Assembly: GCA_964460615.1 (NCBI GenBank)
Contig: CAYWPX010000011.1
Coordinates: forward strand, 1-56,215
Reading direction: 5' to 3'
From: an uncultured Planctomycetia bacterium
GTDB taxonomy: Bacteria; Omnitrophota; Gorgyraeia; CAYWPX01
DNA length: 56,215 nucleotides
Shown: piece after piece, positions 1 to 18,292 of the stretch
How the letters are laid out: each line of letters opens with the position of its first letter
How positions within the stretch are numbered: the stretch's first letter is position 1
Notes under the pieces: model-generated
Seen by the model: the letters and a program-made list of their open reading frames with translations, nothing else
Database searches by the model: none
Told to the model about the DNA's origin: nothing
Made by a program: the position numbers and the translations under genes

Positions 1-2830
1 GAATTAACTGGGATGATCTAAAGATAATGACAGAGGCAGGCATCAACTGGGCCGACTTCGAGCCATTAACTAGTGCTGGTATCAATTGGTTAGACTTAGC
101 TTCAATGTCTGAGGCAGGAATTAATTGGGATGATATAAATACATTAACTACAAAGGGCATTAATTGGGATGATATAGAGACAATGTCCACTGCAAATATT
201 AATTGGTCTGATCTAAATACAATGACAGAGGCCGGCATCAACTGGGCTGATTGGTCGCGTTTGAGTAAATCTGGAATTAATTGGTTGAATTTGAACCAAA
301 TGAGCGTTGTTAACTGGGATGCATTGCAGGCTATGTTGGATGTCGGAGTTAATTGGGCTGATCTTAAGACTATGACAGATATGGGTATAAATTGGACTGA
401 TTTAAATGTTTTAAGCGAGGCGGGAATAAATTGGTCAGATATTAGTATTATGTCTACTTCAGGAGTTAATTGGGTTGATTGGGGTAATTTAAGTGATGCA
501 GGGGTTAATTGGGCAAACTTGAAGTCTTTCAGTGAAACCGGCGTTAACTGGGCTGGTTTACAAGCGATGCTTGACGTTGGTGTGAATTGGGATTCTTTGA
601 AAGTTATGACTGATTCTGGCGTCAATTGGTCTGATTTGGCAGTAATGTCTGATGCTGGTGTCAATTGGTCTGACTTGAGTCTTATGTCGACAGCCGGAGT
701 TAACTGGTCTGATTGGGGTAATTTAAGTGATGCAGGCGTTAATTGGGAAAATCTGAGGTCATTTAGCGAGACTGGCGTTAACTGGATTGGATTGCAGGAC
801 ATGCTTTCTTCCGGTGTGAATTGGAACAGTCTTAGGATTATGAGTGAGTCGAATGTTAATTGGTCTGATTTTGCAGTGATGAGCGAGGCTGGTGTGAATT
901 GGAGCGATCTTGAGATCTTATCTACTGCTGGGATTAATTGGCAGGATTGGAATAATCTTAGTGCGGCGGGAGTTAATTGGACTAACTTGAAAGCTTTTAG
1001 CGAAACCGGCGTAAACTGGTCAGAGCTACAAAACATGCTTGATGCCGGTGTTAATTGGGATGGCTTAAAGACTATGTCTGATACCGGTATTAATTGGAAT
1101 GATATTCGAGTTCTTTCGGCTACGGGCATTAACTGGAGTAGTTTACAGCAGATGTCTGATGTAGGGATCAATTGGAATGATATTAAGGCGATGTCTGATT
1201 CGGGGGTTAATTGGCTTGATTGGGGAGCGCTGAGTTCCGCAGGAGTTAATTGGGAAAACTTAAAGTCTTTCAGCGAAACCGGTGTTAACTGGTCAGGCCT
1301 TCAAGAGATGTTAGCTGCCGGGGTTAATTGGGACGATTTGAAGATCATGACAGAGGCAGGTGTCAACTGGGGTGATTTAACAACAATGTCAGAAGCCGGC
1401 ATCAACTGGGTTGATATTAAGTCTATGTCAATTGCCGGAGTGAATTGGTCAGATTGGGCATCTCTGAGTAGCGCTAGTGTAAATTGGGAAAACTTAAGAG
1501 CGTTTAGCCAAACCGGAGTTAATTGGGATGCTCTCCAGGTTATGCTTGGTACAGGTGTCAATTGGGACGATTTGAAGGTTTTGACAGAAGCAGGAATTAA
1601 TTGGGGTGATTTTGAATCGATGAGCAATAGTAATATCAATTGGGCAACATTGAATACTATAACTACTGCAGGTGTTAATTGGTTAGATCTGCAGGTTATT
1701 TCTGAGAGCGGGATCAATTGGAATGATATTAGAAGTATGTCAGAAGCGGGTGTCAATTGGCAGGATGTTTCAGTTTTGGGAAATGCCGGCATCAACTGGG
1801 ATGATTTCGAAAGGCTGACTAATTCGGGTATCAACTGGTCAGGACTTATGACAATTAGTGAAACCGGAGTTAATTGGGATGATTTGAAGTTGATGTCTGA
1901 TGCCGGCATCAACTGGGCGGATTGGGCAGAATTAAGTTCTGTGGGTGCAAATTGGGACAATTTAAAAATTATTAGTGATACAGGTCTAAATTGGAATGAT
2001 CTTAAAGTGATGTTGGGGCAAAACATTAATTGGGGCAATTTCCAGATTATGTCAGAAGCCGGGATTAATTGGTCTGACATCACTGCTTTGACAGAGGCAG
2101 GCATCAATTGGTCGAATTTTACAACTATGACAGAAGCGGGTATCAACTGGATAGATATGGGAAATATGTCAAATAAAGGCGTCAATTGGTTAGATATAGC
2201 TTATTTTAGTTCAATAGGTGTTAACTGGGATGATCTGAAAATAATGGCAGATTCTAATATCAATTGGATAGATATAGGTGATATGTCTGAGGCCAATATT
2301 AATTGGAATACAATAACCGTTATGAGCGAGGCAGGAGTGAATTGGGATGGTATGAAGGCCATTACAGAAGCAGGGGTTAATTGGGAAGATCTTTCAAGAC
2401 TTTCTTTAGCCGGTATTAACTGGTCTGATTTAGTTGACATGACTGACGCCGGTGTTAACTGGCACGATCTGGCAAATCTATCTGCGTCAGGTATTAATTG
2501 GGCTGATATTAACCAGTTATCCAGTGCAGGAGTAAATTGGCAGGATATGAAGGTGTTGAGCGAAGCAGGCATCAACTGGGCGGATATGAAGACGTTAACA
2601 ACAATCGGAGTTAACTGGAGCGACCTTGGCTCTATGACTAAGGCTGGTATTAATTGGAATGACATGCAGGCAATGACAGAGGCCGGAGTAAATTGGCAGG
2701 ATTTGGGATACATGGCCGGTGCAGGCATTAATTGGACCAATGTACGCGGCCAAACAATTGCAGGCATAAATTGGACTGATTTGGCTTCAATGACAGCATC
2801 CAGTATTAACTGGGAAGGGATTAATACGCT
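1..2830 (+). repeat. Coding tandem repeat: 39-nt unit (13 aa) with a 234-nt (6-unit) higher-order repeat between about 462 and 1670
   Basis: Higher-order copies start at 462, 696, 930 (this one has 7 units, 273 nt), 1203 and 1437. Each begins GVNWxDWGxLSxAGVNWxNL[KR]xFSETGVNWxxLQxML. The nt strings at 462 and 696 align at an offset of exactly 234. Confidence 0.9.
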
Positions 2831-3545
2831 TAGTAAGAATGTAGATGGCATTATAGCCGATATTGATACGATAAGGACATTGGTTGAGGGTTTGGATGTT
2901 GATGCTTTGAATGTTTCTGTAAATAATATTCAGTCATTAGTAAATGATTTACAGGGTATAGATGTAACTCAACTACAGACTTCTTTAAGTGAAATAGTAG
3001 CTCTTATGGGTTCAGAGTCAGACTCGGTTTCGGGAACCACACTCTTCTCTAAGCTTAATAGTATAGAAGGATATGCAACCTTGATCGGCTCTACCTCTGA
3101 TACAGGCTCGCAGGAAACTGTTTTTGGCAAACTAGCTTCCTCAAAGAATTACGCTTCTAACGCAGCAGACGGCATAGAGGCTTTAAGGAATGATATCGGT
3201 AAAAAAGATATTAATGAATCCAGCTTATGGGAAAGAATAAATAGGATAAATGAAAATTTAGACGCGGTTAAAAATACTGCCAATTCAGTCTTAATGACGA
3301 AATCAGACGCCGAAACCTTGACAAAAAATATTATAGATTCTATGGTAAATGCTACCAATAAGGCCGCCGAGTCTATAGGGTTAAAAATGGAAGAAATAAA
3401 AGGATTAAATAAAGATCAGGTATCAAATATTACCTTAGTTAAAAATAAGATCAAAGAGGTAAAGGAAACGCTGGATGTTATATATAAGGCAAAAACTCAA
3501 GGCGGGGAAGGGGTAATGATAAAGACATGGTTCGAAACCCAGTAA
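3..3545 (+). CDS. Giant repeat protein (probable surface fibre or adhesin), 5' end cut by the window edge. Roughly 70 tandem 13-aa G-[IV]-N-W repeats, then a ~240-aa non-repeat, helix-prone tail.
   Basis: ORF track 27..3545. The same frame stays open back to nt 3 (I-N-W-D-D-L-K-I precedes the Met at 27), so that Met is internal. Repeat unit is G[IV]NWxD[LIW]xx[ML][ST][ED][AST]. Repeats end near nt 2830 (..SINWEGINTLSKN..). Confidence 0.85.
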   Translation: MNWDDLKIMTEAGINWADFEPLTSAGINWLDLASMSEAGINWDDINTLTTKGINWDDIETMSTANINWSDLNTMTEAGINWADWSRLSKSGINWLNLNQMSVVNWDALQAMLDVGVNWADLKTMTDMGINWTDLNVLSEAGINWSDISIMSTSGVNWVDWGNLSDAGVNWANLKSFSETGVNWAGLQAMLDVGVNWDSLKVMTDSGVNWSDLAVMSDAGVNWSDLSLMSTAGVNWSDWGNLSDAGVNWENLRSFSETGVNWIGLQDMLSSGVNWNSLRIMSESNVNWSDFAVMSEAGVNWSDLEILSTAGINWQDWNNLSAAGVNWTNLKAFSETGVNWSELQNMLDAGVNWDGLKTMSDTGINWNDIRVLSATGINWSSLQQMSDVGINWNDIKAMSDSGVNWLDWGALSSAGVNWENLKSFSETGVNWSGLQEMLAAGVNWDDLKIMTEAGVNWGDLTTMSEAGINWVDIKSMSIAGVNWSDWASLSSASVNWENLRAFSQTGVNWDALQVMLGTGVNWDDLKVLTEAGINWGDFESMSNSNINWATLNTITTAGVNWLDLQVISESGINWNDIRSMSEAGVNWQDVSVLGNAGINWDDFERLTNSGINWSGLMTISETGVNWDDLKLMSDAGINWADWAELSSVGANWDNLKIISDTGLNWNDLKVMLGQNINWGNFQIMSEAGINWSDITALTEAGINWSNFTTMTEAGINWIDMGNMSNKGVNWLDIAYFSSIGVNWDDLKIMADSNINWIDIGDMSEANINWNTITVMSEAGVNWDGMKAITEAGVNWEDLSRLSLAGINWSDLVDMTDAGVNWHDLANLSASGINWADINQLSSAGVNWQDMKVLSEAGINWADMKTLTTIGVNWSDLGSMTKAGINWNDMQAMTEAGVNWQDLGYMAGAGINWTNVRGQTIAGINWTDLASMTASSINWEGINTLSKNVDGIIADIDTIRTLVEGLDVDALNVSVNNIQSLVNDLQGIDVTQLQTSLSEIVALMGSESDSVSGTTLFSKLNSIEGYATLIGSTSDTGSQETVFGKLASSKNYASNAADGIEALRNDIGKKDINESSLWERINRINENLDAVKNTANSVLMTKSDAETLTKNIIDSMVNATNKAAESIGLKMEEIKGLNKDQVSNITLVKNKIKEVKETLDVIYKAKTQGGEGVMIKTWFETQ

Positions 3546-4882
3546 TGAATAAGATTATCCAATCGGTTATTTTATTGAATGTACTGATATGTTCGGCATT
3601 CTTTTTTTGTACTCATTCATTTGCCGATGTTGTTGCAAAAATCCTTGTTACCAATACTTCTGAGACTGAACAAGAGGTCCCTGTAAAATACCCGCTTCCT
3701 GCAGGCTTGCAGAAACAGGATATTATTGATTCAGGCGGGCTGAAAAGCGAATATGATGTTAAGACTGGAAATTTTTCTATTATTGGAAATGTAAAATTGG
3801 GTCCCAAGGAAAGCAAAACCATAAGAGTAGTTATTAGGGATGTTTGGAAAATCCCTGATTCAGAAATAAACGATCTAATTGTAATTTTAGAGGACAAAGT
3901 AAAATCCGTTAAAGATGAAAGTAAAAAAATGAGAGTTCAGCTTATAGCGGAAGGCATAAGAAATAAGCTTGTTGCGATACAAAGTAAACAGTCTGAATTT
4001 GCTGATGATGCGGAAAAGAGAATGCAGATATATTCCATAAACAGAAGCAAGCTAAAGGAAATCAAAGACCAGATTTTTTCTCTGGATAACATAGCCGAGT
4101 ATGAAACTGAAGATGTTGAAAGCAAGGATACCCTGAGTCTTGTCATAGAGGCTGAAAATACTTTGGATCAAAAAATGGAAGTCCCTATCAAGTATTATCT
4201 CCCTCAAGAGATTATCCCGGATTATATTGTTGAAAAAGCTGACTTTGATCTGAAATTCGACCCTTCGAAGAACCAGTTTTTTCTTGAGAAAAATGAAAGC
4301 TTTGAACCAAATGAAAAAAAGAAATTCAATATTGTTATAAAAAATATCTGGATTATATCCGAAGAACTTATTAATAATTATCTCAAAGAGGCAGGGGATT
4401 TAAATGAAAAGCTGCAAAAAGGCGCCTATGCTCAGATCGCTTCTTCAATATTCAACGAGATAAAAAGAAATGCCGCGCAAATAGTTGATTCACAAAGAAA
4501 ATCTGAATCAATAATGGAGTATATCTCTAATTTTAAAGGCAATCAGATATGCCTTGAGAACATTAAAGATGATCTGGATAAGCTTAGAAACCTTACTAAA
4601 GAGCAGAAGAAGGAAGAGGAGCTGGCAAAAAATAAAATTAAAAACGTTCTCAGAGATATAAACGTCCTTGAAAAACTTAAAAGATTCTCAGATACCCTGC
4701 TTAAAGGAAAGCTTTCTTCAATAGGAGTATGGAAAATAATACTATTTATTATAAGTTTTGTTATAATACTTACAACGTTTTTCTACACAGTGTGGTTCAT
4801 TAATCTAAAAAAAGAAGAAAAACGACAGATTAAAAAAGTTGATACTGAAGTAAAAAAACCGGAAACTGATAATAAAGAGTAA
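3545..4882 (+). CDS. Secreted, C-terminally membrane-anchored protein with two copies of a beta-rich module, each followed by a coiled-coil segment
   Basis: The ATG at 3545 overlaps the upstream TAA (TAATG). It yields MNKIIQSVILLNVLICSAFFFCTHSFA, a signal-peptide-like N-terminus. The track start at 3527 adds 6 aa. C-terminal TM: IGVWKIILFIISFVIILTTFFYTVWFI. Module 1 ..VTNTSETEQEVPVKYPLP..IRVVIRDVWKI.. parallels module 2 ..EAENTLDQKMEVPIKYYLP..FNIVIKNIWII.. Confidence 0.7.
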   Translation: MNKIIQSVILLNVLICSAFFFCTHSFADVVAKILVTNTSETEQEVPVKYPLPAGLQKQDIIDSGGLKSEYDVKTGNFSIIGNVKLGPKESKTIRVVIRDVWKIPDSEINDLIVILEDKVKSVKDESKKMRVQLIAEGIRNKLVAIQSKQSEFADDAEKRMQIYSINRSKLKEIKDQIFSLDNIAEYETEDVESKDTLSLVIEAENTLDQKMEVPIKYYLPQEIIPDYIVEKADFDLKFDPSKNQFFLEKNESFEPNEKKKFNIVIKNIWIISEELINNYLKEAGDLNEKLQKGAYAQIASSIFNEIKRNAAQIVDSQRKSESIMEYISNFKGNQICLENIKDDLDKLRNLTKEQKKEEELAKNKIKNVLRDINVLEKLKRFSDTLLKGKLSSIGVWKIILFIISFVIILTTFFYTVWFINLKKEEKRQIKKVDTEVKKPETDNKE

Positions 4883-4888
4883 TTTCTG

Positions 4889-4897
4889 TGATATAAT
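4889..4897 (+). promoter_or_regulatory. Candidate extended -10 element (TGATATAAT) 25 nt upstream of atpA
   Basis: TGnTATAAT match in the 39-nt gap before 4922. AT-rich DNA produces many chance matches. Confidence 0.3.
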
Positions 4898-4921: not shown

Positions 4922-6448
4922 ATGTCTAATTTACAGTATAAAGAATATGGAGTTGTTAGAAAAATCAGAGGTTGTATTGTTACTGTTACAGGCCTCGAAA
5001 ATTGTATCAATGGCCAGCTTGTCAGGTTCGGCTTTGGTACGGAAGGTACGATAATTGGTTTTGATGAGGAAGAAACTCATGTACTTTTGGTAAAGGAAAA
5101 AGAATCTATTAAGACCGGCGATGCTGCCATAATGACCTTAGAGCCTTTTAATACCCCGGTAGGGAAAAATTTTGTAGGGAGGGTTGTAAATGTATTAGGC
5201 GAGCCAATGGATAACTTAGGTCCTTTGGCCCCTGATGCCTATTTTCCGATATTTGCGGATTCCCCGTCAGTTATGCAAAGAGAGGTAGTAAAAACTACTC
5301 TTGAGACGGGTATTAAACTGATAGATACTATGATACCTATTGGCAGAGGTCAAAGACAGTTGATACTTGGCGATAAAATGACAGGCAAAACTACCATAGG
5401 TACCGATATTATCTTAAATCAAAAAGGTAAGGATGTAATTTGTATATACTGTTGTATAGGAAAAGGCAAAGCGGCTCTAGATAGGGTTGTTAACCTGTTT
5501 AAGAGTAAAGATGCATTCCAGTATACTATTGTTGTTGCGGCAATGGCAGGCATTTCTCCCGGACAGCAGTATCTTGCACCGTACATTTCTTGCTCGCTCG
5601 GAGAGTACTTTATGAAAAAGGGCGGGCATGTATGCGTTATTTTTGATGATTTTACTAAACATGCGTGGGCTTATAGGGAAATATCACTTCTTTTGGGCAG
5701 GCCTCCCGGTAGGGAATCCTATCCCGGTGATATATTCTATCTCCATTCGCGTATGATAGAAAGAGCTGCTAAGCTTTCCAAAGAACTTGGCTTAGGGTCA
5801 ATGACTTTTTTCCCTATAGTCGAGCTTTTGGAAGGAGACCTTACGGGATACGTCTCTACAAATCTTGTTTCCATGACAGATGGACAGATATATCTCAGCA
5901 CTCCGCTTTTCAGTGAAGGTTTCCGTCCTGCGGTTGACAGCGGATTATCTGTATCTCGTATCGGTAATAAAGTCCAGTGGCCGGCAATGAAGAAGGTCAG
6001 CAAGTCCCTTAGGTTAGAGTATCTTCAATACAGGGATATATTAAAGACCTCAAGGTTAAAAGCCGGAGGCAAGAGCGAGGAGTCAATGGAACAGATGAAG
6101 GGCGGAGAAGTGTTGTCAGAGCTCCTTAAGCAGGATAAGGATAGCCCCTTAGATATGGAAGAAGAGATAGTGCTTTTTTATGGGTTAAGTAAAAAATATT
6201 TTCAAAGTCTAAATAGCAGTCAACTCAAAAAACTCCAAAAAGAGATTTATAAATACGCTAAAACAAATTGTCCCGATGCTATGAAAAAGCTTACTGAGAC
6301 CAAAGACCTTACACCTGATATAGAAGCGGAATTTGACAGAATTTATCAGGATTTTCTAAAGATATTGGAAGCCGAAGCATCAAGCGAAGAAAAAGAAGAG
6401 ATGGAAAAGGAAAGGAAAGTTAAGGCCGAAGCCCAGACTGTGGCCTAA
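4922..6448 (+). CDS. atpA: F-type ATPase alpha subunit (divergent)
   Basis: GRGQRQLILGDKMTGKTT matches the alpha P-loop region (canonical GDRQTGKT). 508 aa. GGAGAA RBS upstream. Confidence 0.9.
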   Translation: MSNLQYKEYGVVRKIRGCIVTVTGLENCINGQLVRFGFGTEGTIIGFDEEETHVLLVKEKESIKTGDAAIMTLEPFNTPVGKNFVGRVVNVLGEPMDNLGPLAPDAYFPIFADSPSVMQREVVKTTLETGIKLIDTMIPIGRGQRQLILGDKMTGKTTIGTDIILNQKGKDVICIYCCIGKGKAALDRVVNLFKSKDAFQYTIVVAAMAGISPGQQYLAPYISCSLGEYFMKKGGHVCVIFDDFTKHAWAYREISLLLGRPPGRESYPGDIFYLHSRMIERAAKLSKELGLGSMTFFPIVELLEGDLTGYVSTNLVSMTDGQIYLSTPLFSEGFRPAVDSGLSVSRIGNKVQWPAMKKVSKSLRLEYLQYRDILKTSRLKAGGKSEESMEQMKGGEVLSELLKQDKDSPLDMEEEIVLFYGLSKKYFQSLNSSQLKKLQKEIYKYAKTNCPDAMKKLTETKDLTPDIEAEFDRIYQDFLKILEAEASSEEKEEMEKERKVKAEAQTVA

Positions 6449-6452
6449 AATT

Positions 6453-6704
6453 ATGAGCGTACTAGGAAAATTCAAACTAAAAGTCATTAACCCTGACAGA
6501 ATGCTTTTTCAGGGAGATGTAACAACTGTTTTTTTGCAGGGGGATACTTGTGAGTTTGAGTTATTGGCTTATCATTATCCGGTCCTAAGCTTATTAAGGC
6601 AAGGCCAGGTTGTTATTGACTGGTCCCAATATATCCCGATAAGAAAAGGCTTAGTAAAATTTTTTAAAAATGATTGCACAATATTGGTGGAGTTAGACGA
6701 ATAA
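6453..6704 (+). CDS. atpC: F-type ATPase epsilon subunit, short form (N-terminal beta-sandwich only)
   Basis: KLKVINPDRMLFQGDVTTVFLQGDTCEFELLAYHYPVLSLL resembles the epsilon N-terminal domain. Only 83 aa, so there is no room for the C-terminal helical hairpin. Confidence 0.65.
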   Translation: MSVLGKFKLKVINPDRMLFQGDVTTVFLQGDTCEFELLAYHYPVLSLLRQGQVVIDWSQYIPIRKGLVKFFKNDCTILVELDE

Positions 6705-6707
6705 CAT

Positions 6708-6920
6708 ATGAATACATTAATCATATTATTTATCATGTTTATTGTTGTCGGCGGGCCGTCTGCGGTAATCGGTTTTTTAGGTTACGCGACTATTAAAGCC
6801 CTGGGGAGGAATCCGTCAGCCGCTTCAAAAATATTTATGGGGACGGTTTTGCTACTAGTTTTTGTCGAAGCAATATCTATTATTGCGCTTCTAGTTATAT
6901 TCCAGCTTTTTGGTACATAA
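6708..6920 (+). CDS. atpE: F-type ATPase c subunit (rotor ring proteolipid)
   Basis: 70 aa, two TM helices joined by the polar loop GRNPSAAS. Carboxylate in helix 2 (LVFVEAISII). Confidence 0.8.
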   Translation: MNTLIILFIMFIVVGGPSAVIGFLGYATIKALGRNPSAASKIFMGTVLLLVFVEAISIIALLVIFQLFGT

Positions 6921-6943
6921 AATTTTAATAGAAAGGCTATATT

Positions 6944-7681
6944 ATGTTTTTATTACAATTGATAATAGTCATGACGATAATGTTTGGTGTTGTTATTTTT
7001 ATATTAAAGAAAATGATGTATGGGGATACGCAAAGTGCAGTCAACCGCCTTAATGAATCTTATCAGGAGATTGAGAAAAAGAAACAAGAGATGGCTACTC
7101 TTATGCAAAAGATGGAGGAAGAATATAAGATAAAGAAGGAGGAGGGCGAGAAAATTGCTCTGCAGCTAAAAGACGCCGCTGAAGCGGAGATGCGCGAAAA
7201 ATATGATTCTTCAATTAAAAAAGCCAAAGATGAAGCCGAGAGGATTATCACTGACGCTGCCGGGATGAAGGACAGGATCCGAGAAGAAATTAGAAAAGAG
7301 GAGGACCTCAAGGAAATTTCTTATTGTGAAGAGCTTATTTCAGATACTCTAAAAAAGATCATTAGGGATAAATTTGATGATATTCTTATAGAAGATTTTG
7401 TCAATGACCTTAAAGATATCGATATGAGCCATGTGCCGCCTGCTATTAACGAAATAGAGATAGTCACCCGGGCTAAGTTGGCTGATGGTATTAAAAATAA
7501 GATTGTTGAATCAGTAAACAAAAAGACCCAGAAAAAAATAACTTTTAAAGAGACCATAGATCAAAAAATTATCGGCGGCGTAATTATTAAATTCGGAAGC
7601 CTTGTTTTAGACGGTAGCATTGCCGGAAAACTCAAAGAAAATACCATAGTAAAGAAGAAAAAGATAGACGAAAAAACCTAA
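6944..7681 (+). CDS. atpFH: F-type ATPase b subunit fused to a delta/OSCP-like C-terminal domain
   Basis: Single N-terminal TM (LLQLIIVMTIMFGVVIFIL), then a long charged coiled coil as in subunit b. The C-terminus ..IIGGVIIKFGSLVLDGSIAGKLKEN matches the delta C-terminal signature (GG..i..G....DgS....L). Confidence 0.7.
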   Translation: MFLLQLIIVMTIMFGVVIFILKKMMYGDTQSAVNRLNESYQEIEKKKQEMATLMQKMEEEYKIKKEEGEKIALQLKDAAEAEMREKYDSSIKKAKDEAERIITDAAGMKDRIREEIRKEEDLKEISYCEELISDTLKKIIRDKFDDILIEDFVNDLKDIDMSHVPPAINEIEIVTRAKLADGIKNKIVESVNKKTQKKITFKETIDQKIIGGVIIKFGSLVLDGSIAGKLKENTIVKKKKIDEKT

Positions 7682-7687
7682 AAGTTT

Positions 7688-8545
7688 ATGAGTAAAACTG
7701 CAAAAATCAAGTCAGATCTTGACGATATAACTAGTCTCGTTGAAATTATTCAGATCCTTAAAGACGTGGCCTCAAACCATTTTTATAATACTGCAAAAAG
7801 AAAAGAAAGGTTTGAGGAATTTGCTGAGGTTTTTACCGATTTTTTTAGGATGGTAAGTTTAGCAGAGGCAACAAGCCCGCTTGTTCATAGCCAGGTAGAT
7901 AAGGTAGCAATACTTGCTCTTACATCCGAAGGCGGGTTTATGGCTGAAATGACTGCAAAGGTTGTAAGGACCGCAGTGGCAGAGGCAGAGAAGTTTGATA
8001 CACACGAGTTTATTGTCATAGGTCAAAAGGGCGTCGAGAAGATGAGGACCATGACAACAAAAAAATTTACCAGTTTTGTAGGGATAGAAGATAAGGGGCT
8101 ATTTAAAACTGCCCTCGAGGTTAAAGATTATATTATACAACAGGTAGTCGAAGGGAACTATGGAAAGGTTTACGGAGTATATCCTAGGGCTAAGACAATA
8201 AATTTAATAAAGCCTTTTTCAGTTAAATTGCTTCCATCGGAAGAACTTATTACCAGACAAATTGAGATAAAAGATACGATTGAAAAGGTTATTGTTGAGT
8301 CAGATCTTAATAAAATTATACATTACCTTGCGGATATCTGGCTTACCTGCCGTCTTTATGAAATGCTTGAAGACTGTGTTGTGGCAGGTTTTGCTGCCCA
8401 AGCACAGCAATTAGAAGCAAGTTTGGAAAGGCTTAAAAAAGATAAGAAAGGGATTGCGCTTAATTTTGCTAAAGCAAAAAAAGGCGATATTGACAAAAGC
8501 TTAAGAGAGGTTTTTACAGCCTCGCTTATTACTGGAAGAAGGTAA
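7688..8545 (+). CDS. atpG: F-type ATPase gamma subunit (divergent)
   Basis: 285 aa. Position between b/delta and beta. N- and C-terminal helices typical of gamma (SDLDDITSLVEIIQILKDVAS..; ..LERLKKDKKGIALNFAKAKKGDIDKSLREVFTASL). Confidence 0.7.
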   Translation: MSKTAKIKSDLDDITSLVEIIQILKDVASNHFYNTAKRKERFEEFAEVFTDFFRMVSLAEATSPLVHSQVDKVAILALTSEGGFMAEMTAKVVRTAVAEAEKFDTHEFIVIGQKGVEKMRTMTTKKFTSFVGIEDKGLFKTALEVKDYIIQQVVEGNYGKVYGVYPRAKTINLIKPFSVKLLPSEELITRQIEIKDTIEKVIVESDLNKIIHYLADIWLTCRLYEMLEDCVVAGFAAQAQQLEASLERLKKDKKGIALNFAKAKKGDIDKSLREVFTASLITGRR

Positions 8546-8548
8546 TAA

Positions 8549-10069
<1,521 letters not shown>

Positions 10070-10072
10070 TAA

Positions 10073-12361
10073 ATGTATAATCTAGAAAAAGAACTTCCTG
10101 TAAGGCTTTTAGAAGAAAGTCTTATATCAAAAGAAGCTCTATCGAAAATAGAAAACGAATGCGGAAGCCTGGGCATCCCGTTTTCTTCTTACATTGTAAA
10201 TAATAAAACTATTCCTGATGAAAAGCTGCTGCCTATTGTGGCTGAAATACTAGGTCTCTCCTATGTAAATTTAAAAGAGACTCCCATAGATAATAAAGCC
10301 ATCAAGGCTGTTCCGGTAAAGTTTGCGTGGTATTATGAGTTTATTCCTATACAGCTGGAAGGTTCGAGGCTGACGATCGCAGTAAGCTGGCCTTTAAGCG
10401 TTAGGGTGCAGGATGAGATTCGCCTAAGCCTTGAGTATAATATCAGTACGGTATTAGCAAAAAAGGACCATATTGTGGAGATGCTAAAAATACATTATGG
10501 CTTGGGTTCTGATACTGTTGATAAAATGGTCCAGCATACAGAGGGATTGGCGGAAACTATAGAAGCCAAAGTCCATGGCGAGTATGCTTCTATAGAAGAC
10601 TTGGAAAAGATCGGCGAAGGCGCTTCAGTTATAAAACTTGTTAACCAAATTGTCCTAGATGCTTATAAAAAGAGGGCCACTGATATACATATTGAACCGT
10701 TCAGGGATAAGATACGCCTTAGGTACAGGATCGACGGGGTGCTTAGAGACCAGAAGATACCGGAAAACCTGAGGCATTTTCTTCTTCCTATCCTTTCACG
10801 TCTGAAGATCATGTCAGGTTTGGATATTTCCGAAAGAAGGATCCCGCAGGATGGCAAGACCACTGTTAAGACGCAGGAGCAGGTCCTTGACCTTAGGCTT
10901 TCATTTATACCTACTCCATATGGCGAGAGCGTAGTAATAAGGATCCTTCCCAGAAAAGTTTTTTATAAATTGGAAAATCTAGGATTTTCAAACGAGGATC
11001 AAAAGACAATAGAGTCACTTGTAAAAAAACCAAACGGAATATTATTTGTTGTCGGTCCTACAGGCTCCGGTAAAACTACTACTCTTTATTCTTGCCTTGA
11101 AAAAATCAACAAAATCGAAAAAAAAGTTGTTACTATCGAAGATCCGATAGAATATGAGATCGAAAACGTTACACAGATCCAGGTCAATCCGGATGCCGGG
11201 CTTACATTTGCAGTCGGGCTTAGAAGTATGTTAAGACATGACCCTGATATTGTAATGGTAGGAGAGGTGAGAGACAGAGAAACCGCAGAGATAGCTATAA
11301 GAGTGGCGCTTACAGGGCATCTTGTGCTTTCAACCGTTCATACAAATGACGCGGCAACAGGCGCAACGAGGCTAATAGAGATAGGCATTGAGCCGTATTT
11401 GGTAGCGTCGAGTGCGGAGGCATTTATTGCCCAGAGGCTTGTAAGAGTTATTTGTCCTTCATGCAAAAAAGAGTATAAAGATATTGACCCCGAAATGGTT
11501 AAAGACATTGCTTCCAGCCTTTCCATAAAAGATTCAGGTAAAATTAAGATATTTAAGGGCGCCGGATGCGCACAGTGCAATTTTACGGGATTTTACGGCA
11601 GAGTTGCGATATATGAGATATTATTGGTGACTCAAAATATTAAAAGATTAATAATGGAAAAAGGCTCTGCTTTAGAAATAAAATCAGAAGCTATAAAAAA
11701 TGGAATGAAAACCTTGCTGCAGGACGGTTGGCTTAAAGTCGTGAACGGACTTACTACTCCCGAAGAGGTTTTAAATGTTTGTCATAACTCAAAAGAAGAT
11801 AGGGTGCTAGAGGATAATATACCTTCATTAAATGTTAATCAAGAGAATGAAAAAGAACTGGTTATAAAGGAAGAAAATCTTAAGCCTGGCCAAGATGAAA
11901 GAAGGGTGCATCTGAGAGTACCTAAAAGAATTACGGTAAGATTCAGGCTTATTGAAAAGGCGAATGGAGAAATAATTAAGTTAAACAAAAAGGATTCCAA
12001 CCAGAAACCACAGGATATTTTCCTGAAAGGATTGCTTGACGACCAGCTAGTCGAAAAAGTAGATTCGTCTAGTTTTGTCGAAGTTTTAACCACGACTACC
12101 AATATTAGCGGAGGCGGGATGTCATTCGAGTCGCAATATCTTATCCCCGCTGAATCGATCTTAGAGATAAATTTTAATTTACCAGGCGATAATGAGCAGA
12201 TCCACTGTTTAGCTAAAGTTGTGAGAGTGGAAAAAGATCTCCCAAAGACTTTTTATATAGCTGTGTGCTATCTTGACCTATCAGGTATAATGCGTAAAAA
12301 AATCACCGATTTTGTTAATAGTGAATTCTCAAAAAGTAAAATAATAAAACTGGAAACCTAA
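10073..12361 (+). CDS. gspE: GspE/PilB-family secretion ATPase with a C-terminal PilZ-like domain
   Basis: T2SSE_N-like N-terminus, Walker A GPTGSGKTTT, tetracysteine CPSC..CAQC. The C-terminal ~190 aa carry RxxxR (RVHLR, nt 11904-11918) and NxSxxG (NISGGG, nt 12101-12118). Confidence 0.85.
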   Translation: MYNLEKELPVRLLEESLISKEALSKIENECGSLGIPFSSYIVNNKTIPDEKLLPIVAEILGLSYVNLKETPIDNKAIKAVPVKFAWYYEFIPIQLEGSRLTIAVSWPLSVRVQDEIRLSLEYNISTVLAKKDHIVEMLKIHYGLGSDTVDKMVQHTEGLAETIEAKVHGEYASIEDLEKIGEGASVIKLVNQIVLDAYKKRATDIHIEPFRDKIRLRYRIDGVLRDQKIPENLRHFLLPILSRLKIMSGLDISERRIPQDGKTTVKTQEQVLDLRLSFIPTPYGESVVIRILPRKVFYKLENLGFSNEDQKTIESLVKKPNGILFVVGPTGSGKTTTLYSCLEKINKIEKKVVTIEDPIEYEIENVTQIQVNPDAGLTFAVGLRSMLRHDPDIVMVGEVRDRETAEIAIRVALTGHLVLSTVHTNDAATGATRLIEIGIEPYLVASSAEAFIAQRLVRVICPSCKKEYKDIDPEMVKDIASSLSIKDSGKIKIFKGAGCAQCNFTGFYGRVAIYEILLVTQNIKRLIMEKGSALEIKSEAIKNGMKTLLQDGWLKVVNGLTTPEEVLNVCHNSKEDRVLEDNIPSLNVNQENEKELVIKEENLKPGQDERRVHLRVPKRITVRFRLIEKANGEIIKLNKKDSNQKPQDIFLKGLLDDQLVEKVDSSSFVEVLTTTTNISGGGMSFESQYLIPAESILEINFNLPGDNEQIHCLAKVVRVEKDLPKTFYIAVCYLDLSGIMRKKITDFVNSEFSKSKIIKLET

Positions 12362-12367
12362 TAAAAC

Positions 12368-13585
12368 ATGGCAATATTTGAATATAAAGCAAAAAGAGGC
12401 CCTGAAGATATCTTAGAAGGCAAGATGATAGCCGATACTTCTGATGAAGTTGTAGAGAGGCTGAATGAGAAAGGTTATGTCGCATTGTCAGTCAAAGAAA
12501 AAGGTATGCAAGAGGGTGAACCTGGCCCTTTAATCAAAAGGCAATCAGCAAGATTAAGCTTAAAGGAAAAAATATTTTTTTCTAGGCAGCTTGCCAGTCT
12601 ATTGAAATCAGGTATACCTATTTTAAAAGCTCTTCAGATCCTTTCGGAGCAGACAAGTAATAAGAAATTCAGTGTTTGTGTTGATAATATGGCAAACGAC
12701 ATAAAAAATGGCGAAACTCTTTCCTCTAGTTTAGGAAATTATTCAAAGATTTTTTCACCGTTTTATTTAGCAATGGTAAAAGCCGGAGAAGACAGCGGAG
12801 AGGTAGATACTTCTTTATTTAGGGTTACCGATTATTACTTAAAACAGGCGGAATTTAACTCTAAAATCAAGACGGCGTTAGCTTATCCTATCCTTATATT
12901 GGTTGTAGGATTTTTTACCGTATTATTTATGTTTACGAATGTTATTCCCAAGATCATACCCTTATTTTCTGATTTAGGAGCCGAGCTTCCGCTTCCTACC
13001 AAGATTCTTATTTCAACCAGTGATTTTATTAGGAATCATTGGTTTAACTTGAGTCTTTTTATTATAATATTTTTAGTAATTGTTTTTAGGGTTTCAAAGA
13101 ATAAACTTTTGAATGCTTATTTTTCCATGATCAGGCTGAAAACCCCGGTTTTAGGTGATTTTATATTAAAAGCAGAATTTGCACGTTTTGCCAGGGCTAT
13201 GGAAATGGCGCTTCACGACGGTATTCCCATTATTAAGGCTATGGATATCTCAATACCTATTATTGGGGAGGAAATAATAAAAGAGGAGCTCTTAAGATCA
13301 AGGGATGAGCTAGAAAAAGGAAGTTCTTTGGGAGAAGTCCTTAAATTATCAAGAGTTTTTCCTCCTTTTGTATTTAATCTAATAAGTGTTGGAGAAGAGT
13401 CGGGTAAAGTCGAAGAGTCATTTACCAATATTGCTGAGTCGTACGAAAGTGAATGTTCCGATGCTTTAAAAATTATGACCACATTGATTGAACCTATAAT
13501 GGTATTAGGAGTCGGGCTTGTGGTAGCTTTTATAGTGAGTGCGGTGCTTTTGCCTATATTCCAACTTAATTTTGTAACCCAATGA
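12368..13585 (+). CDS. gspF: GspF/PilC-family inner-membrane platform protein
   Basis: 405 aa. Duplicated T2SSF-type domain architecture with 3 TM segments. Position directly after gspE. Confidence 0.85.
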   Translation: MAIFEYKAKRGPEDILEGKMIADTSDEVVERLNEKGYVALSVKEKGMQEGEPGPLIKRQSARLSLKEKIFFSRQLASLLKSGIPILKALQILSEQTSNKKFSVCVDNMANDIKNGETLSSSLGNYSKIFSPFYLAMVKAGEDSGEVDTSLFRVTDYYLKQAEFNSKIKTALAYPILILVVGFFTVLFMFTNVIPKIIPLFSDLGAELPLPTKILISTSDFIRNHWFNLSLFIIIFLVIVFRVSKNKLLNAYFSMIRLKTPVLGDFILKAEFARFARAMEMALHDGIPIIKAMDISIPIIGEEIIKEELLRSRDELEKGSSLGEVLKLSRVFPPFVFNLISVGEESGKVEESFTNIAESYESECSDALKIMTTLIEPIMVLGVGLVVAFIVSAVLLPIFQLNFVTQ

Positions 13586-13603
13586 TAATGAAAGGAACAT
13601 TAA

Positions 13604-14062
13604 ATGCTAAAAGTTTTATCGAGACAATTTTTAAAAGGCAGATTTATTGGATGCAATAGGTCAGCGTTTACGCTTATCGAGATACTGTTAGTGGTTGTGA
13701 TCATAAGTGCGCTGGCTACGATGATATTACCTAGGCTTGCCGGAAGGTCGGAGAAAGCGAAAGAGAATATTGCCAAGACCGATGTAATTGCTAATATTCC
13801 AACGGCACTTAAATTATATGAGCTGGATAATGGTAATTACCCCACTACAGAACAGGGCCTAAAGAGCCTAATAACAAAACCTAGCACCCAGCCAGAACCG
13901 CAAAACTGGAATGGGCCCTATTTAGACAGAAAATCCCTTGCGGATCCATGGGGAAGAGAGTATGTGTACAAGTGTCCAAGTTCCCATGGCCTTGATTATG
14001 ATCTTTATTCATTAGGGAAATCCGGTAAAGATGATGATAAGGTTATAGGGAATTGGCAATAA
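13604..14062 (+). CDS. gspG: Major pseudopilin, GspG type
   Basis: Prepilin N-terminus ..RSA/FTLIEILLVVVIISALA. GspG body motifs LYELDNGNYPTTEQGL, GPYL, DPWGREYVYKCP, YDLYSLGKSGKDD. Confidence 0.85.
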   Translation: MLKVLSRQFLKGRFIGCNRSAFTLIEILLVVVIISALATMILPRLAGRSEKAKENIAKTDVIANIPTALKLYELDNGNYPTTEQGLKSLITKPSTQPEPQNWNGPYLDRKSLADPWGREYVYKCPSSHGLDYDLYSLGKSGKDDDKVIGNWQ

Positions 14063-14066
14063 TTAC

Positions 14067-14474
14067 ATGACAAATAGGACAAATATATATATCCCTACTT
14101 CCAAAATTAGAGGATTTACTTTCCTAGAAGTTCTTCTTGCCATTTCAATTTTCTCTTTCGGGGCAATTTATATTTTTACGATTTTTTCAAATACAAGCTC
14201 GGCCATGAGGCATCTCGGCAATAGAGCAACTGCTTTTCTGATCATGGATACAAAGGTTTGGGACGCTAAAGCGTATCTGGATACAAGTATTATCCCGGGT
14301 GGTTATAATTTATCGAGTAAAGAAGGAAATAACCCTGAATTTAATTGTAAATCCAATCTTTCTAGGTTAGAGCAGTACTCAAATATGTACAAACTGGATT
14401 TAAACATATCCTGGCGTGAACAGAATAAAAACATCAGTCTTAATAGAATTATCTATTTAAAGAAAAAAACATAA
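14067..14474 (+). CDS. Minor pseudopilin (GspI/H-like)
   Basis: Prepilin-type N-terminus IRG/FTFLEVLLAISIFSF. 135 aa. Confidence 0.6.
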   Translation: MTNRTNIYIPTSKIRGFTFLEVLLAISIFSFGAIYIFTIFSNTSSAMRHLGNRATAFLIMDTKVWDAKAYLDTSIIPGGYNLSSKEGNNPEFNCKSNLSRLEQYSNMYKLDLNISWREQNKNISLNRIIYLKKKT

Positions 14475-14475
14475 T

Positions 14476-15087: not shown

Positions 15088-15089
15088 TC

Positions 15090-16130: not shown

Positions 16131-16137
16131 AGAGCTT

Positions 16138-17589: not shown

Positions 17590-17590
17590 T

Positions 17591-18268: not shown

Positions 18269-18292
18269 TGCTAATAGTAAATTGGTGAAAAT

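Follow-up and report, generated by a model that had tools for sequence, protein, structure and literature searches.

A usually giant protein of tandem 13-residue units, predicted to form helix-turn repeats, heads the F-type-ATPase-plus-pilus/secretion cluster of Omnitrophota

Omnitrophota are widespread, uncultivated, ultra-small bacteria, and other cells are believed to be their hosts or their prey. Mycoplasma mobile carries the giant surface proteins Gli123, Gli349 and Gli521, and its surface 'legs' are driven by an F1-like ATPase; the ATPase clusters of Mycoplasma reportedly lack the c and b/delta subunits. Its gliding machinery resembles the locus described here in that a small, host-dependent bacterium combines an F1-like ATPase cluster with surface proteins of very large size; however, Omnitrophota are diderm and possess a secretin. 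The main genomic clue to attachment in Omnitrophota is an ATPase-plus-pilus locus, already published as the 'symbiotic' F-type ATPase/T4aP locus, in which the ATPase cluster adjoins PilB/PilC/pilin genes; in the main text of that study, the locus was proposed for attachment and motility on host cells, and the alpha subunit was grouped with Mycoplasma type-2/3 ATPases (Seymour et al. 2023, PMC10066038). A text search of the same main text did not find the word 'repeat'. A second related group is formed by giant Omnitrophota genes, which the preprint texts describe as long, signal-peptide-bearing, repeat-rich and located beside T2SS/pilus-like genes, and the products of which were proposed to mediate prey or host adhesion (bioRxiv 10.1101/2023.11.21.568195; 10.64898/2026.06.07.730766). 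Those encoded near T2SS-like loci were proposed by West-Roberts et al. (bioRxiv 10.1101/2023.11.21.568195) to be adhesion or cell-wall-degrading factors. According to these texts, the giant proteins contain Pfam domains (dockerin, TSP3, LamG, NHL, WD, peptidases) or a predicted beta-helix, whereas the array protein described below has no Pfam match and its units are predicted to be helical. Keyword searches returned no 13-residue N-W repeat from the text of either preprint, and neither 'ATP synthase' nor 'F-type' from that of bioRxiv 10.1101/2023.11.21.568195.

The window, that is, the whole stretch of 56,215 nt analysed here, contains a locus of the type published by Seymour et al. 2023 (an F-ATPase within 10 kb of type-4 pilus genes), with the ATPase genes at 4922-10069 and GspE/PilB directly after them at 10073 (Table 1). 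To this locus type we add two unannotated and almost invariably present genes at its head (66/68 informative loci), encoding a putative fibre protein made of 13-residue units and a membrane-anchored partner. Together with 'pilus' genes that score as T2SS and an ATPase cluster that yielded no a-subunit gene, these provide a concrete parts list for the apparatus.

Table 1. Coordinates of the features of the locus in the window (nt)
Feature	Position	Strand	Remark
N-W array	3..2840	+	73 units of 13 aa, first unit clipped by the window edge
Irregular 11-residue unit GINWLNLNQMS	273..305	+	without positions 12-13
6-unit higher-order repeat region (78 aa / 234 nt)	462..1670	+	Tandem Repeats Finder, spacings, lag identity
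Final array unit	2802-2840	+	SINWEGINTLSKN
Non-repeat C-terminal tail	2841..3545	+	234 aa + stop codon
Tail motif [LI]-x-G-S-x-S-D-x(5-6)-T-[LV]-F-[SG]-K-L	3003..3134	+	two copies, LMGSESDSVSGTTLFSKL and LIGSTSDTGSQETVFGKL
C-terminal strand-like motif VMIKTWFE	3513..3536	+	family consensus VVVK[ST]WFE, then 1-5 mostly acidic residues and stop
Neighbour gene, directly 3' of the array gene	3545..4882	+	ATG at nt 3545; alternative ATG at nt 3527
F-type ATPase-like cluster	4922..10069	+	
ATPase alpha	4922-6448	+	
ATPase epsilon	6453-6704	+	
ATPase c subunit	6708-6920	+	
ATPase b/delta fusion	6944-7681	+	
ATPase gamma	7688-8545	+	
ATPase beta	8552-10069	+	
T2SS/T4P-like gene block	10073..19297	+	
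GspE/PilB	10073-12361	+	with MshEN and PilZ domains
GspF/PilC	12368-13585	+	
GspG	13604-14062	+	
Two minor pseudopilins	14067-15087	+	
GspK-like	15090-16130	+	
PilM-PilN fusion	16138-17589	+	
Protein of no named family	17591-18268	+	
TPR protein	18293-19297	+	

The array gene (3-3545, + strand) encodes 1180 aa plus a stop codon in the window, with a single Pro and no Cys. As the initial annotation had read it, the gene runs off the 5' edge of the window and overlaps the next gene in TAATG (nt 3543-3547). The open reading frame contains 73 N-W dipeptides, and 71 of their 72 spacings are exactly 13 residues, in agreement with the earlier estimate of about 70 copies with one shorter unit; the sole exception is a spacing of 11 residues, where GINWLNLNQMS is followed by VVNW. 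By comparison, shuffling the 947-aa array with its composition kept gave a mean of 9.8 and a maximum of 20 N-W dipeptides. The tally over the 71 regular units yielded the consensus G-[IV]-N-W-x-D-[LI]-x-x-[ML]-[ST]-x-A, with G at position 1 (62/71), V (37/71) or I (32/71) at position 2, invariant N and W at positions 3 and 4 (71/71 each), D (47/71) or N (9/71) at position 6, L, I, W, F or M at position 7, M (37), L (22), F (6) or I (5) at position 10, S (43) or T (18) at position 11, and A (38/71) at position 13. These positional tallies bear out what was initially described: two residues ahead of N-W stands a Gly, two behind it an acidic residue or Asn, and about six behind it a hydrophobic residue or Met. 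The array end, initially placed at nt 2830, lies at nt 2840. The conserved Gly is encoded by all four codons (22/17/16/8) and Ser11 by the AGY and TCN families about equally, and this synonymous diversity at conserved residues indicates that the array is under protein-level selection.

A higher-order organization is superimposed on part of the array. Units with D-W-G/N/A begin at nt 462, 696, 930, 1203 and 1437, which recovers the super-repeat starts noticed before, and they are spaced by 234, 234, 273 and 234 nt, the block from nt 930 consisting of seven units. Tandem Repeats Finder gave a 234-nt period over nt 429-1061, and protein identity within aa 153-557 was 0.61 at a lag of 78 aa versus 0.41-0.48 at other lags. 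Higher-order periods of six, two or three units are also present in other lineages. The 11-residue unit was considered as a conserved N-proximal landmark of the family (..GVNWxE[TQ][IV]NWDNL..) and was rejected as a sporadic two-residue deletion, because a similar sporadic 11-mer sits elsewhere in locus L020.

Among relatives, the array protein turns out to be the constant, usually giant, first gene product of the Omnitrophota F-type-ATPase-plus-pilus/secretion cluster. The family was defined by at least six tandem 13-residue units of the form G-[IV]-N-W-x-[DNSG]-[ILMVF]-x-x-[LM]-[ST], a tail usually ending in VVVK[ST]WFE, and a location upstream of the neighbour and ATPase genes; the window protein belongs to it, with its 73 units, its tail ending in VMIKTWFETQ and the neighbour gene at 3545. 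The closest loci were Omnitrophota genome bins. Across 80 loci the recurrent order, sequence permitting, was array, neighbour, alpha, epsilon, c, b/delta, gamma, beta, GspE and GspF. Sixty-eight of these species-level loci were informative, having at least 1 kb of sequence upstream of the neighbour gene, and in 66 of them the array gene was directly upstream of the neighbour gene, with the array, neighbour and ATPase genes contiguous and co-oriented; what had been seen in one contig, an array gene heading an ATPase-pilus cluster, is true generally. The other two (L072 and L080) have the neighbour gene and the ATPase cluster with the upstream array gene absent. The distance from the array-gene stop to the neighbour match was at most 100 nt in about 50 of the 66 loci.

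The 6,114 units collected from 77 loci share the invariant N-W and the same sense-strand consensus. Complete genes contain 42 units (L001/P0001) or 31-33 units (L002/P0005). In seven loci, one of them a complete chromosome record (L052, OY759724.1), about 200 units span the entire 10-kb flank. The largest count comes from L004: at least 487 units, in an ORF that covers at least 6,674 aa and remains open where the locus sequence stops. Array size in relatives ranges from 31 to at least 487 units, and the 1180 aa in the window are probably a minority of the full gene, given the at least 200 to at least 487 units of relatives on long contigs. In complete relatives, a Sec signal peptide is followed by an Ig-like domain and a further beta-rich part (N-terminal 'head', ~300 aa), then by the array and a tail of ~150-365 aa mostly ending in VVVK[ST]WFE; signal-peptide-like N-termini were recognized by eye in P0002-P0008 and L004. 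A profile search of 1.84 billion representatives retrieved 492 protein clusters at E <=1e-3, of which 34 reached E <=1e-30.

Each unit is predicted, with good support, to form an amphipathic helix of ~9 residues (W4 to position 12) followed by the four-residue turn A13-G1-[IV]2-N3. This is based on two AlphaFold2 runs, a direct-coupling analysis and a capping-motif reading of the consensus. The structure prediction of 10-20 units proposed in the initial annotation was carried out with 12 units, using in-register unit stacks of 24 rows (first run) and 61 rows (second run) as inputs. Both runs gave 12 helices for 12 units, covering residues 4-12 in nearly every unit; the confidence values were pLDDT 52 and pTM 0.33 for 24 rows and pLDDT 57 and pTM 0.27 for 61 rows, because of which the tertiary models are untrustworthy. 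Of the solenoid or fibre suggested at first, one short helix per unit is well supported, while the three-dimensional packing is left at pLDDT 52-57. Mean-field direct-coupling analysis of 5,492 six-unit segments placed the pairs 6-9 (i+3, score 4.4) and 8-12 (i+4, score 3.9) at the top, with all others below 2; further leading couplings between variable positions were 6-13 (i+7), 9-12, 9-13, 5-8, 5-9 and the adjacent 8-9. The near-invariant N3 and W4 columns also gave high-ranking couplings, which we read as pseudocount artefacts. The 6-9 coupling is compensatory: Asp/Glu at position 9 is enriched 3.7- to 7.9-fold when position 6 is not Asp, and the combination of D6 with an acidic residue (D or E) at position 9 occurs at 0.09-0.22 times the expected frequency. 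Neither mutual-information nor direct-coupling analysis gave inter-unit contacts; the only correlations between units were at the same position, owing to duplication history. Under the general helix-capping rules (Schellman C-cap, hydrophobic staple, capping box), the consensus appears to fit a Schellman C-cap with Gly at C', [IV]2 at C'' and [ML]10 at C3, a hydrophobic staple with [IV]2 at N' and [LI]7 at N4, and a capping box formed by N3 and D6.

The suspicion that the repeat belongs to no known family was upheld by every library searched. The array protein had no match in NCBIfam, nothing meaningful in PHROGs and no match in PDB sequence and profile searches, and the Pfam alpha-solenoid families (TPR, HEAT, Sel1, LRV, pentapeptide) gave nothing above noise. 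Foldseek, also proposed as a check, was run against the PDB with the low-confidence AlphaFold2 models and found no structural family, its best match being a designed alpha/alpha toroid at E 1.7 for the first model, with zero matches for the second; a literature text search for the repeat motif found no relevant paper. In Pfam, Lysostaphin_N (PF25533) came near its cut-off of 60 with 56.1 bits over the whole protein (0 stretches passing) and 32.5 bits for a 12-unit piece. The repeat of that family is also 13 residues long, and is not known to contain Trp or an N-W motif; the 56 bits arise from the shared 13-residue period, and we read the match as a coincidence of periodicity and not as homology. 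The segment [VI]-N-x-x-D-[LI]-x-x-[LM] presumably resembles the second half of a dockerin loop with its exiting helix, which we take as a lead only. The array consensus differs in having no counterpart of the first loop half, D-x-[DN]-x-D-G (positions 1, 3, 5), and the dockerin/EF-hand candidate was rejected after the Dockerin_1 and EF-hand profiles gave no match on array segments at E up to 10. Alpha-solenoids (TPR, HEAT, Sel1, leucine-rich repeat variant) resemble the array in their tandem short helices and tight turns, and their A/B helix pairs recall the alternating two-unit (26-aa) pattern of several lineages; however, the array has 13 aa per helix, whereas solenoids have 34-47 aa per helix pair. 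The novelty of the repeat holds, and we regard it as an undescribed 13-residue helix-turn repeat.

The array is followed by a Ser/Thr-rich, helical, coiled-coil-like tail that is conserved family-wide. Its internal motif, present twice in the window, occurs in 2-4 copies in relatives. Nearly all of the 66 tails listed end in the VVVK[ST]WFE type, with two tails lacking it, and a divergent tail group ends in AVV[TQK][AS]W[ML]E. The neighbour protein contains a signal peptide, two beta-rich-plus-helical internal modules and, at the C-terminal side, a transmembrane helix in which Trp, Ile, Phe and Thr are conserved, followed by a short K/E-rich cytoplasmic end. It belongs to no known family, and its profiles had no significant match in the PDB or Pfam, apart from a weak DUF11 in 4 of 46 members.

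On balance, we favour the explanation that the window ORF encodes the last 1180 aa of an exported Omnitrophota fibre protein of far greater length, which may serve as a surface tether or adhesin held by the neighbour. The analysis shows the repeat with its helical secondary structure, confines it to this locus type, and gives the range of sizes and the order of domains; the rod packing, the surface location, the anchoring through the neighbour and the adhesive role are inferred. Within a unit, Asn3 would be the N-cap, Trp4, [LI]7 and [ML]10 with [ST]11 would make up one conserved helix face, and positions 5, 8, 9 and 12 would form the variable, solvent-facing side, while a tight A-G-[IV] turn would connect successive helices. 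Hundreds of such helices could pack via the conserved face into an elongated rod or ribbon, the length of which would be set by unit copy number and may amount, as a rough estimate, to tens to hundreds of nanometres. The protein would be exported via the Sec pathway, and the neighbour, a membrane-anchored protein translated together with it, would fix its C-terminal tail to the cell envelope. From there the shaft would extend outward with the head at its N-terminal tip, the probable route being through, or next to, the T2SS-like secretin and pseudopilus machine encoded in the same locus. Outside, the protein would attach the cell to others as a tether or adhesin. The adjoining ATPase cluster would be part of the same apparatus; no gene for an a subunit was found in it.

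The fibre could also be homo-oligomeric, e.g. a trimer like phage fibres or the stalks of trimeric autotransporters, with helices packing between chains; we consider this unlikely, though worth keeping in mind, and if it were so, monomer structure predictions would be uninformative. In the PDB, the best match to the tail profile is the coiled-coil neck of DC-SIGNR, with its repeats of 23 residues (3jqh, E = 1e-10), a designed coiled coil comes second (E = 1.6e-6), and the weaker matches include GCN4-fused adhesin stalk constructs and a trimeric autotransporter fragment; however, all of these are of the generic coiled-coil type, and beyond the first two they are weak (E >=0.005). The low monomer pLDDT despite a clean alignment would fit an absent partner chain. 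Phage tail-fibre or virion-protein domains are found in distant proteins that contain GxNW-type units, which fits a fibre on either reading, and one of these proteins is encoded on a viral contig; a scan of viral contigs with the window protein returned no relatives. An oligomer would in any case concern only the quaternary structure and is compatible with the exported, neighbour-held fibre that we prefer.

Downstream of the ATPase cluster, the 'pilus' genes look like T2SS genes by score. The pilin reaches 137.6 bits with the GspG equivalog (cut-off 88.85), GspF, GspK and GspI are the best matches yet sub-cut-off, and GspE and PilB tie. A secretin and a GspC-like gene were found upstream of the array gene in L001, and the window begins 3' of that point. 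The components used to recognize a type II secretion system (GspG, GspE, GspF and GspK in the window, the secretin in L001) are found in canonical order. Alternatively, the array protein could be the main cargo of a T2SS-like machine, i.e. a released or loosely bound matrix, sheath or polysaccharide-binding protein and not an anchored tether, the Trp-rich units of which would bind glycans. This we find doubtful. Carbohydrate binding by aromatic-rich short repeats, such as choline- and glucan-binding repeats, speaks in its favour, as do the pilin score, the T2SS order E-F-G-..-K and the GspC-like and secretin genes of L001. The text on giant Omnitrophota proteins near T2SS-like loci, with adhesion or cell-wall degradation as proposed roles, points the same way (bioRxiv 10.1101/2023.11.21.568195). 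However, Trp4 shares its face of the helix with the conserved [LI]7 and [ML]10 and is therefore more likely buried than exposed, the array matched no carbohydrate-binding family in Pfam, and the conserved C-terminal motif with the ever-adjacent membrane-anchored neighbour argues for retention on the cell.

In the ATPase cluster of the window, as in those of the relatives, no a-subunit ORF was found, while c and b/delta are kept. An improbable reading, in our judgement, takes the array protein as the mechanical output of a new motor, in which a rotary ATPase composed of alpha3beta3-gamma-epsilon, a c-ring and a b/delta stator would send force through the single-pass neighbour to the fibre and so pull, twist or reel it, the analogy being the F1-like ATPase of the Mycoplasma mobile 'legs'. 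The strict contiguity and co-orientation of the array, neighbour and ATPase genes (66/68 loci), the lack of an a-subunit ORF in the cluster and the conserved residues in the neighbour's transmembrane helix would suit such a machine; still, the physical link between ATPase and fibre is conjecture, and the absence of the a subunit covers the 56-kb window, so that a copy may lie elsewhere in the genome. Against the NCBIfam models of the Mycoplasma gliding ATPase, alpha reaches E = 1e-119 and beta E = 1e-129, both short of the cut-offs (400/600 and 434/850), but they also exceed the ordinary atpA and atpD cut-offs (alpha 513 vs 484). The placement of the alpha subunit with Mycoplasma type-2/3 ATPases, as given in the main text of the locus description, is in line with the former (Seymour et al. 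2023, PMC10066038). NCBIfam and Pfam library scans, which may hold no Gli models, gave no similarity of the array protein to Gli349, Gli521 or Gli123. A more specific version, in which an ATPase with a c-ring and no a subunit works mechanically on the N-W array, as a new-fold rod of hundreds of single-helix units around a continuous Trp/Leu/Met core, via the single-pass neighbour and a T2SS-like conduit, is a long shot. If true, the array would be the filament through which an envelope machine not recognized before transmits force, with the ATPase pulling, twisting or reeling it, and that machine would join type IV pili and the Mycoplasma gliding legs as a third ATPase-driven device for surface motility or predation.

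It is hardly credible that the array results from faulty assembly (repeats collapsed or joined into chimeras) or faulty annotation (a wrong-strand gene call): nearly all short-read contigs end within it and its antisense strand is also open (minus-strand ORFs 1301-2185 and 2201-2851 in the window; a 2,526-aa antisense ORF in L004), but the sense consensus recurs across all 77 loci, codon usage at conserved residues points to protein-level selection, the sense frame is uninterrupted for at least 6,674 aa in L004, it runs on into a conserved tail with translational coupling to the neighbour gene, and the ~200 units of L052 stand in a complete chromosome record. The array evidently breaks assemblies, since 56 of the 57 contig-limited loci have it starting no more than 50 nt from the contig end; the early warning about short-read assemblies was well placed, and the unit copy number from any single one of them, the window included, is unreliable. 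In six genome bins, the N-terminal and C-terminal parts of the gene were found at the ends of two separate contigs. As a consequence of contigs ending at the gene, protein catalogues lack it or contain a shortened version, and a gene can be mis-called in its antisense frame. The array unit is among the shortest regular helix-turn repeats seen, and its sharp capping signature and thousands of natural variants make it attractive for structure determination and design.

The gene at the 5' edge of the window encodes tandem 13-residue units (numbered here G1-[VI]2-N3-W4-x5-D6-[LI]7-x8-x9-[ML]10-[ST]11-x12-A13) followed by a non-repeat tail, all in a single frame that is open at the edge, as the initial annotation had stated. 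The N-W ladder with a 13-residue period was confirmed, with 71 of the 72 spacings being exactly 13 residues; the proposed copy number of about 70 was nearly right (73 N-W dipeptides), while the array ends slightly beyond the proposed extent of 3-2830. Same-composition shuffles yielded a mean of about 10 NW dipeptides and a maximum of 20. Across the 71 regular units, the consensus is G (62), V/I (69), N (71), W (71), x and D (47) or N (9) in the first half, and L/I/W/F/M, x, x, M/L/F/I (70), S/T (61), E/D/x and A/S/T (60) in the second. The 6-unit super-repeat and its five starting points also held up: Tandem Repeats Finder called a 234-nt period, and identity was 0.61 at a lag of 78 aa vs 0.41-0.48 at other lags. 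The array contains 8.4% Trp, 12% Asn, no Cys and one Pro, and has a net charge of -85. Selection for the conserved residues acts on the protein, because the conserved Gly is spread over all of its four codons in numbers of 22/17/16/8, and AGY and TCN codons are about equally frequent at Ser11. The strand opposite the array is likewise open and encodes ..QFTPA.. repeats, as in a 2,526-aa antisense ORF of L004 (11305-18885, minus strand), one of the related genome loci (denoted L; protein homologues are denoted P), and gene callers could annotate this wrong strand.

The earlier reading of the repeat as matching no known family was borne out by all searches. For the whole array protein, Pfam returned only Lysostaphin_N, likewise a 13-residue repeat, at 56.1 bits against a cut-off of 60 and with no stretch passing; 12-unit pieces searched at E up to 10 gave only noise, with dockerin, EF-hand, TPR and HEAT all absent. 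NCBIfam gave no match at all, and PHROGs no meaningful one. The PDB gave no match to a single array sequence, and the best hit of a 136-row array profile (E = 1e-3) was a flagellin stretch at chance level; Foldseek found nothing resembling the AlphaFold2 models of the array. A text search of the literature for the motif retrieved no relevant paper. The ATPase/pilus locus type has already been published by Seymour et al. 2023 (PMC10066038), in the main text of which the word 'repeat' does not occur. By keyword, the N-W repeat is absent from two preprints on giant Omnitrophota genes (bioRxiv 10.1101/2023.11.21.568195 and 10.64898/2026.06.07.730766), and 'ATP synthase' and 'F-type' are absent from the first of them. 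Giant, repetitive proteins that are exported and encoded next to secretion genes are already known from Omnitrophota; the N-W 13-mer family is undescribed.

Features of the array gene, its gene cluster and other genes mentioned in the text (window positions)
Feature	Position (nt)	Strand	Remarks
Array-protein ORF	3-3545	+	1180 codons, open at 5' edge
Irregular unit GINWLNLNQMS	273-305	+	sole 11-residue spacing
6-unit super-repeat (78 aa / 234 nt)	blocks from 462, 696, 930, 1203, 1437	+	
Array 3' limit	2840	+	then 234-aa tail ending ..GVMIKTWFETQ*
Antisense ORF, 294 aa	1301-2185	-	
Antisense ORF, 216 aa	2201-2851	-	
Neighbour	3545-4882	+	two modules, each beta-rich plus helical, between a signal peptide and a C-terminal transmembrane helix; matches no known family
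F1 alpha	4922-6448	+	
epsilon	6453-6704	+	
c subunit	6708-6920	+	70 aa
b/delta fusion	6944-7681	+	
gamma	7688-8545	+	
beta	8552-10069	+	
GspE/PilB	10073-12361	+	MshEN and PilZ domains
GspF/PilC	12368-13585	+	
GspG	13604-14062	+	above NCBIfam equivalog cut-off
Two minor pseudopilins	14067-15087	+	
GspK-like	15090-16130	+	
PilM-PilN fusion	16138-17589	+	
STT3-family oligosaccharyltransferase	19302-21773	-	adjoins cluster
Stand-alone PilZ-domain protein	33255-33743	-	
923-aa protein	53140-55911	+	CBM9-like and Ig-like domains

A census of 80 species-level genome loci, made with the window alpha subunit as query, showed the order neighbour, alpha, epsilon, c, b/delta, gamma, beta, GspE, GspF to be constant wherever the sequence sufficed. 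The N-W array lay directly upstream of the neighbour in 66 of the 68 loci with at least 1 kb of upstream sequence, which bears out the initial annotation that this protein heads the ATPase-pilus cluster. The two exceptions (L072 and L080) have the neighbour and the ATPase cluster, preceded instead by a sensor-like 805-aa ORF and unrelated genes. In seven loci, one of them the complete chromosome OY759724.1, about 200 units span the entire 10-kb flank, which is a lower bound. With this recurrence, and with one array on a complete chromosome, an assembly or annotation artefact is very improbable: that the array exists is all but certain, whereas its copy number may still be affected. The warning that short-read assemblies mishandle such arrays proved justified, since in 56 of the 57 contig-limited array-bearing loci the array begins within 50 nt of the contig end. 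Just two genes lie entirely inside their loci, with 42 units (L001/P0001) and 31-33 units (L002/P0005). In L004, an N-terminus leads into at least 487 units, and the ORF, at least 6,674 aa long, has no stop before the locus ends. The N-terminal-domain scan gave 12 loci, and six genome bins have the gene split between two contig ends, one with the N-terminal part and the other with the C-terminal part and the ATPase. Therefore, the 73 units of the window are a lower bound, and short-read copy numbers are unreliable. Among 1.84 billion representative proteins, a profile search gave 492 clusters at E<=1e-3 and 34 at E<=1e-30, mostly short fragments. Many bins (L014, L017, L019, L023-L025, L037 and others) carry the submitter labels 'uncultured Planctomycetales/Planctomycetia' or 'Elusimicrobia', which are probably imprecise for bins with an Omnitrophota-type locus.

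Twelve units (nt 462-929) were modelled in two AlphaFold2 runs, with 24 and 61 array segments stacked in register. In both runs nearly every unit has a helix over residues 4-12, and A13-G1-[IV]2-N3 makes a 4-residue turn; their confidence was low (pLDDT 52 and 57, pTM 0.33 and 0.27), and they are therefore usable for secondary structure only. Sequence statistics on 6,114 units pooled from 77 loci support the helix independently, with mutual information and mean-field direct-coupling analysis applied to six-unit segments. By far the strongest couplings were 6-9 (i+3) and 8-12 (i+4), followed among variable positions by 6-13 (i+7), 9-12, 9-13, 5-8 and 5-9 as well as the adjacent 8-9, a spacing that reads as an alpha-helix signature. 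High ranks also went to couplings among the near-invariant columns N3 and W4, which we read as pseudocount artefacts. The 6-9 pair is compensatory: units without Asp6 are 3.7- to 7.9-fold enriched in Asp or Glu at position 9, and units with Asp6 and a second acidic residue at 9 occur at only 0.09-0.22 of the expected frequency. One helix face is made up of the variable positions 5, 8, 9 and 12, and the other of the conserved W4, [LI]7, [ML]10 and [ST]11. We take the C-cap to be of the Schellman type (G1 at C', [IV]2 at C'', [ML]10 at C3), presumably followed directly by a hydrophobic staple ([IV]2 at N', [LI]7 at N4), and N3 (N-cap) and D6 (N3 position) to form a capping box; by general capping rules this accounts for every conserved position. 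Direct-coupling analysis of six-unit segments resolved no inter-unit contacts, because residues at the interface vary too little to show covariation. The initial suggestion of a solenoid or fibre is supported in part, by one predicted short helix per unit. Identity between units at variable positions peaks at lags 6 and 12, secondarily at 2 and 4; the best lag is 6 in 18 loci (window included), 2 in nine and 3 in eight, and in some arrays there is a very strong alternation of two unit types (L061, 0.66 vs 0.22). These periods could reflect block amplification, a structural super-period commensurate with six units, or both.

The homologues from the protein search were all from Omnitrophota where the source was named. 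Complete or N-terminal copies (P0002-P0008 and L004) start with signal-peptide-like sequences (e.g., ..FIVSQALA|QY, ..SIPAQA|AI), and then carry an Ig-like domain (..QPVV.V.D..GN.V...L.GT....GVA.F..L.I...G..YTL.A..), a second beta-rich domain, a few TINW 15-mers, the array (N-proximal landmark ..GVNWxE[TQ][IV]NWDNL..) and the tail; P0001 has an extra LamG domain. The motif [IF]-[YF]-x-GGSYDG-[SY] follows the predicted cleavage site in P0002, P0006 (two copies), P0007 and L004. In the 66 loci, tails of 153-365 aa contain 2-4 copies of [LI]xG..D.....T[LV]FGK[LI] and then long helical segments, and most end with ..KL[DE]EI[ND]AK[LI].A[LI][KR]E....VVVK[ST]WFE plus a few acidic residues; a divergent group ends with AVV[TQK][AS]W[ML]E, and two lack the C-terminal motif. 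The tail profile matches the DC-SIGNR 23-residue coiled-coil neck (3jqh, E = 1e-10) and other coiled coils, which suggests a stalk that may oligomerise. The two modules of the neighbour are internally similar, each starting with (K/S)(I/L)(L/V)V.N.S...(E/Q)..VP(V/I)KY(P/Y)LP and ending with I(V/R)(V/I)I(R/K)(D/N)(V/I)W before long helices; W402, I405, F411 and W423 of its transmembrane helix are invariant or nearly so, and four of 46 neighbour homologues match Pfam DUF11 weakly.

The array protein best fits a Sec-exported fibre, in which an adhesive-looking N-terminal head would be carried on a shaft of helix-turn units, variable and often enormous in length, above a coiled-coil-like base. The neighbour, which is membrane-anchored and co-translated with the fibre, would probably hold the conserved strand at the fibre's C-terminus. 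That the protein is exposed at the surface, passes through the secretin, is anchored, oligomerises or is linked to the ATPase is in each case inferred. If stacked helices advance about 0.5-1 nm per unit, as general helix-packing dimensions suggest, 73 units would extend very roughly 35-70 nm and 487 units 240-490 nm, a length comparable to the size of these ultra-small cells. Alternatively, the units could pack between chains in an oligomeric fibre, which the coiled-coil tail brings to mind and which we consider rather unlikely.

By their profile scores, the genes described in print as a 'type-4a pilus' (window 10073-18268) look like a type II secretion system, with GspG above its equivalog cut-off, GspF, GspK and GspI as best hits, and the order E-F-G-x-x-K followed by a PilM-PilN fusion resembling GspL. 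In L001, a secretin and a GspC-like gene (4173-6568) precede the array gene, which puts the array/neighbour/ATPase module between the gspD and gspE positions. Such a setting would also suit a released type II cargo or glycan binder; set beside the conserved C-terminus and the membrane-anchored neighbour, this is unlikely. The MshEN domain at the N-terminus and PilZ domain at the C-terminus of GspE/PilB suggest that cyclic-di-GMP may control this machine. Alpha and beta exceed the ordinary atpA and atpD cut-offs and score strongly, below cut-off, with Mycoplasma gliding-ATPase models, and no a-subunit gene was found in the ATPase cluster of the window (4922-10069) or of the related loci (L001-L091). 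That the array protein is the force-transmitting filament of a new motor is a distinctly improbable reading. As an exported fibre, it would be the missing 'output' component of this enigmatic ATPase/secretion apparatus, and it is of high specialist interest because it would supply that component and has an unusually short, regular helical repeat. Overall, the initial observation stands, and its interpretation is supported and extended.

A small ORF of 51-75 aa lies between c and b/delta in L001 and L002 and is absent in the window. N-W-[ST] forms an N-x-S/T sequon on the invariant Asn in 40% of the 6,114 pooled units and in 20 of 71 in the window; N-glycosylation of the fibre is possible, although Ser/Thr is also favoured at the first turn of a helix. 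An STT3-family gene adjoins the cluster, and in L001 as well as L002 the secretin is preceded by glycosyltransferase, DUF2304 and methyltransferase genes. The stand-alone PilZ-domain protein and the 923-aa protein could have a surface or attachment link. Among distant relatives, P0009, P0010 and P0013 have 8-12 similar 13-mers with GLUG/M26_N-type N-termini and Ig domains, and in P0012, P0015, P0016 and P0018 13-mers (GINWxxIxExxLx) and 10-11-mers follow each other in alternation. Outside the repeat, P0012 (710 aa, on the predicted viral contig L104, IMG/VR UViG_3300038975_000008) matches a PHROG virion structural protein family, P0018 and P0019 match tail-fibre and other virion protein families, and the sole match of P0015 is a family of unknown function. 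The motif thus also serves in other elongated extracellular proteins.
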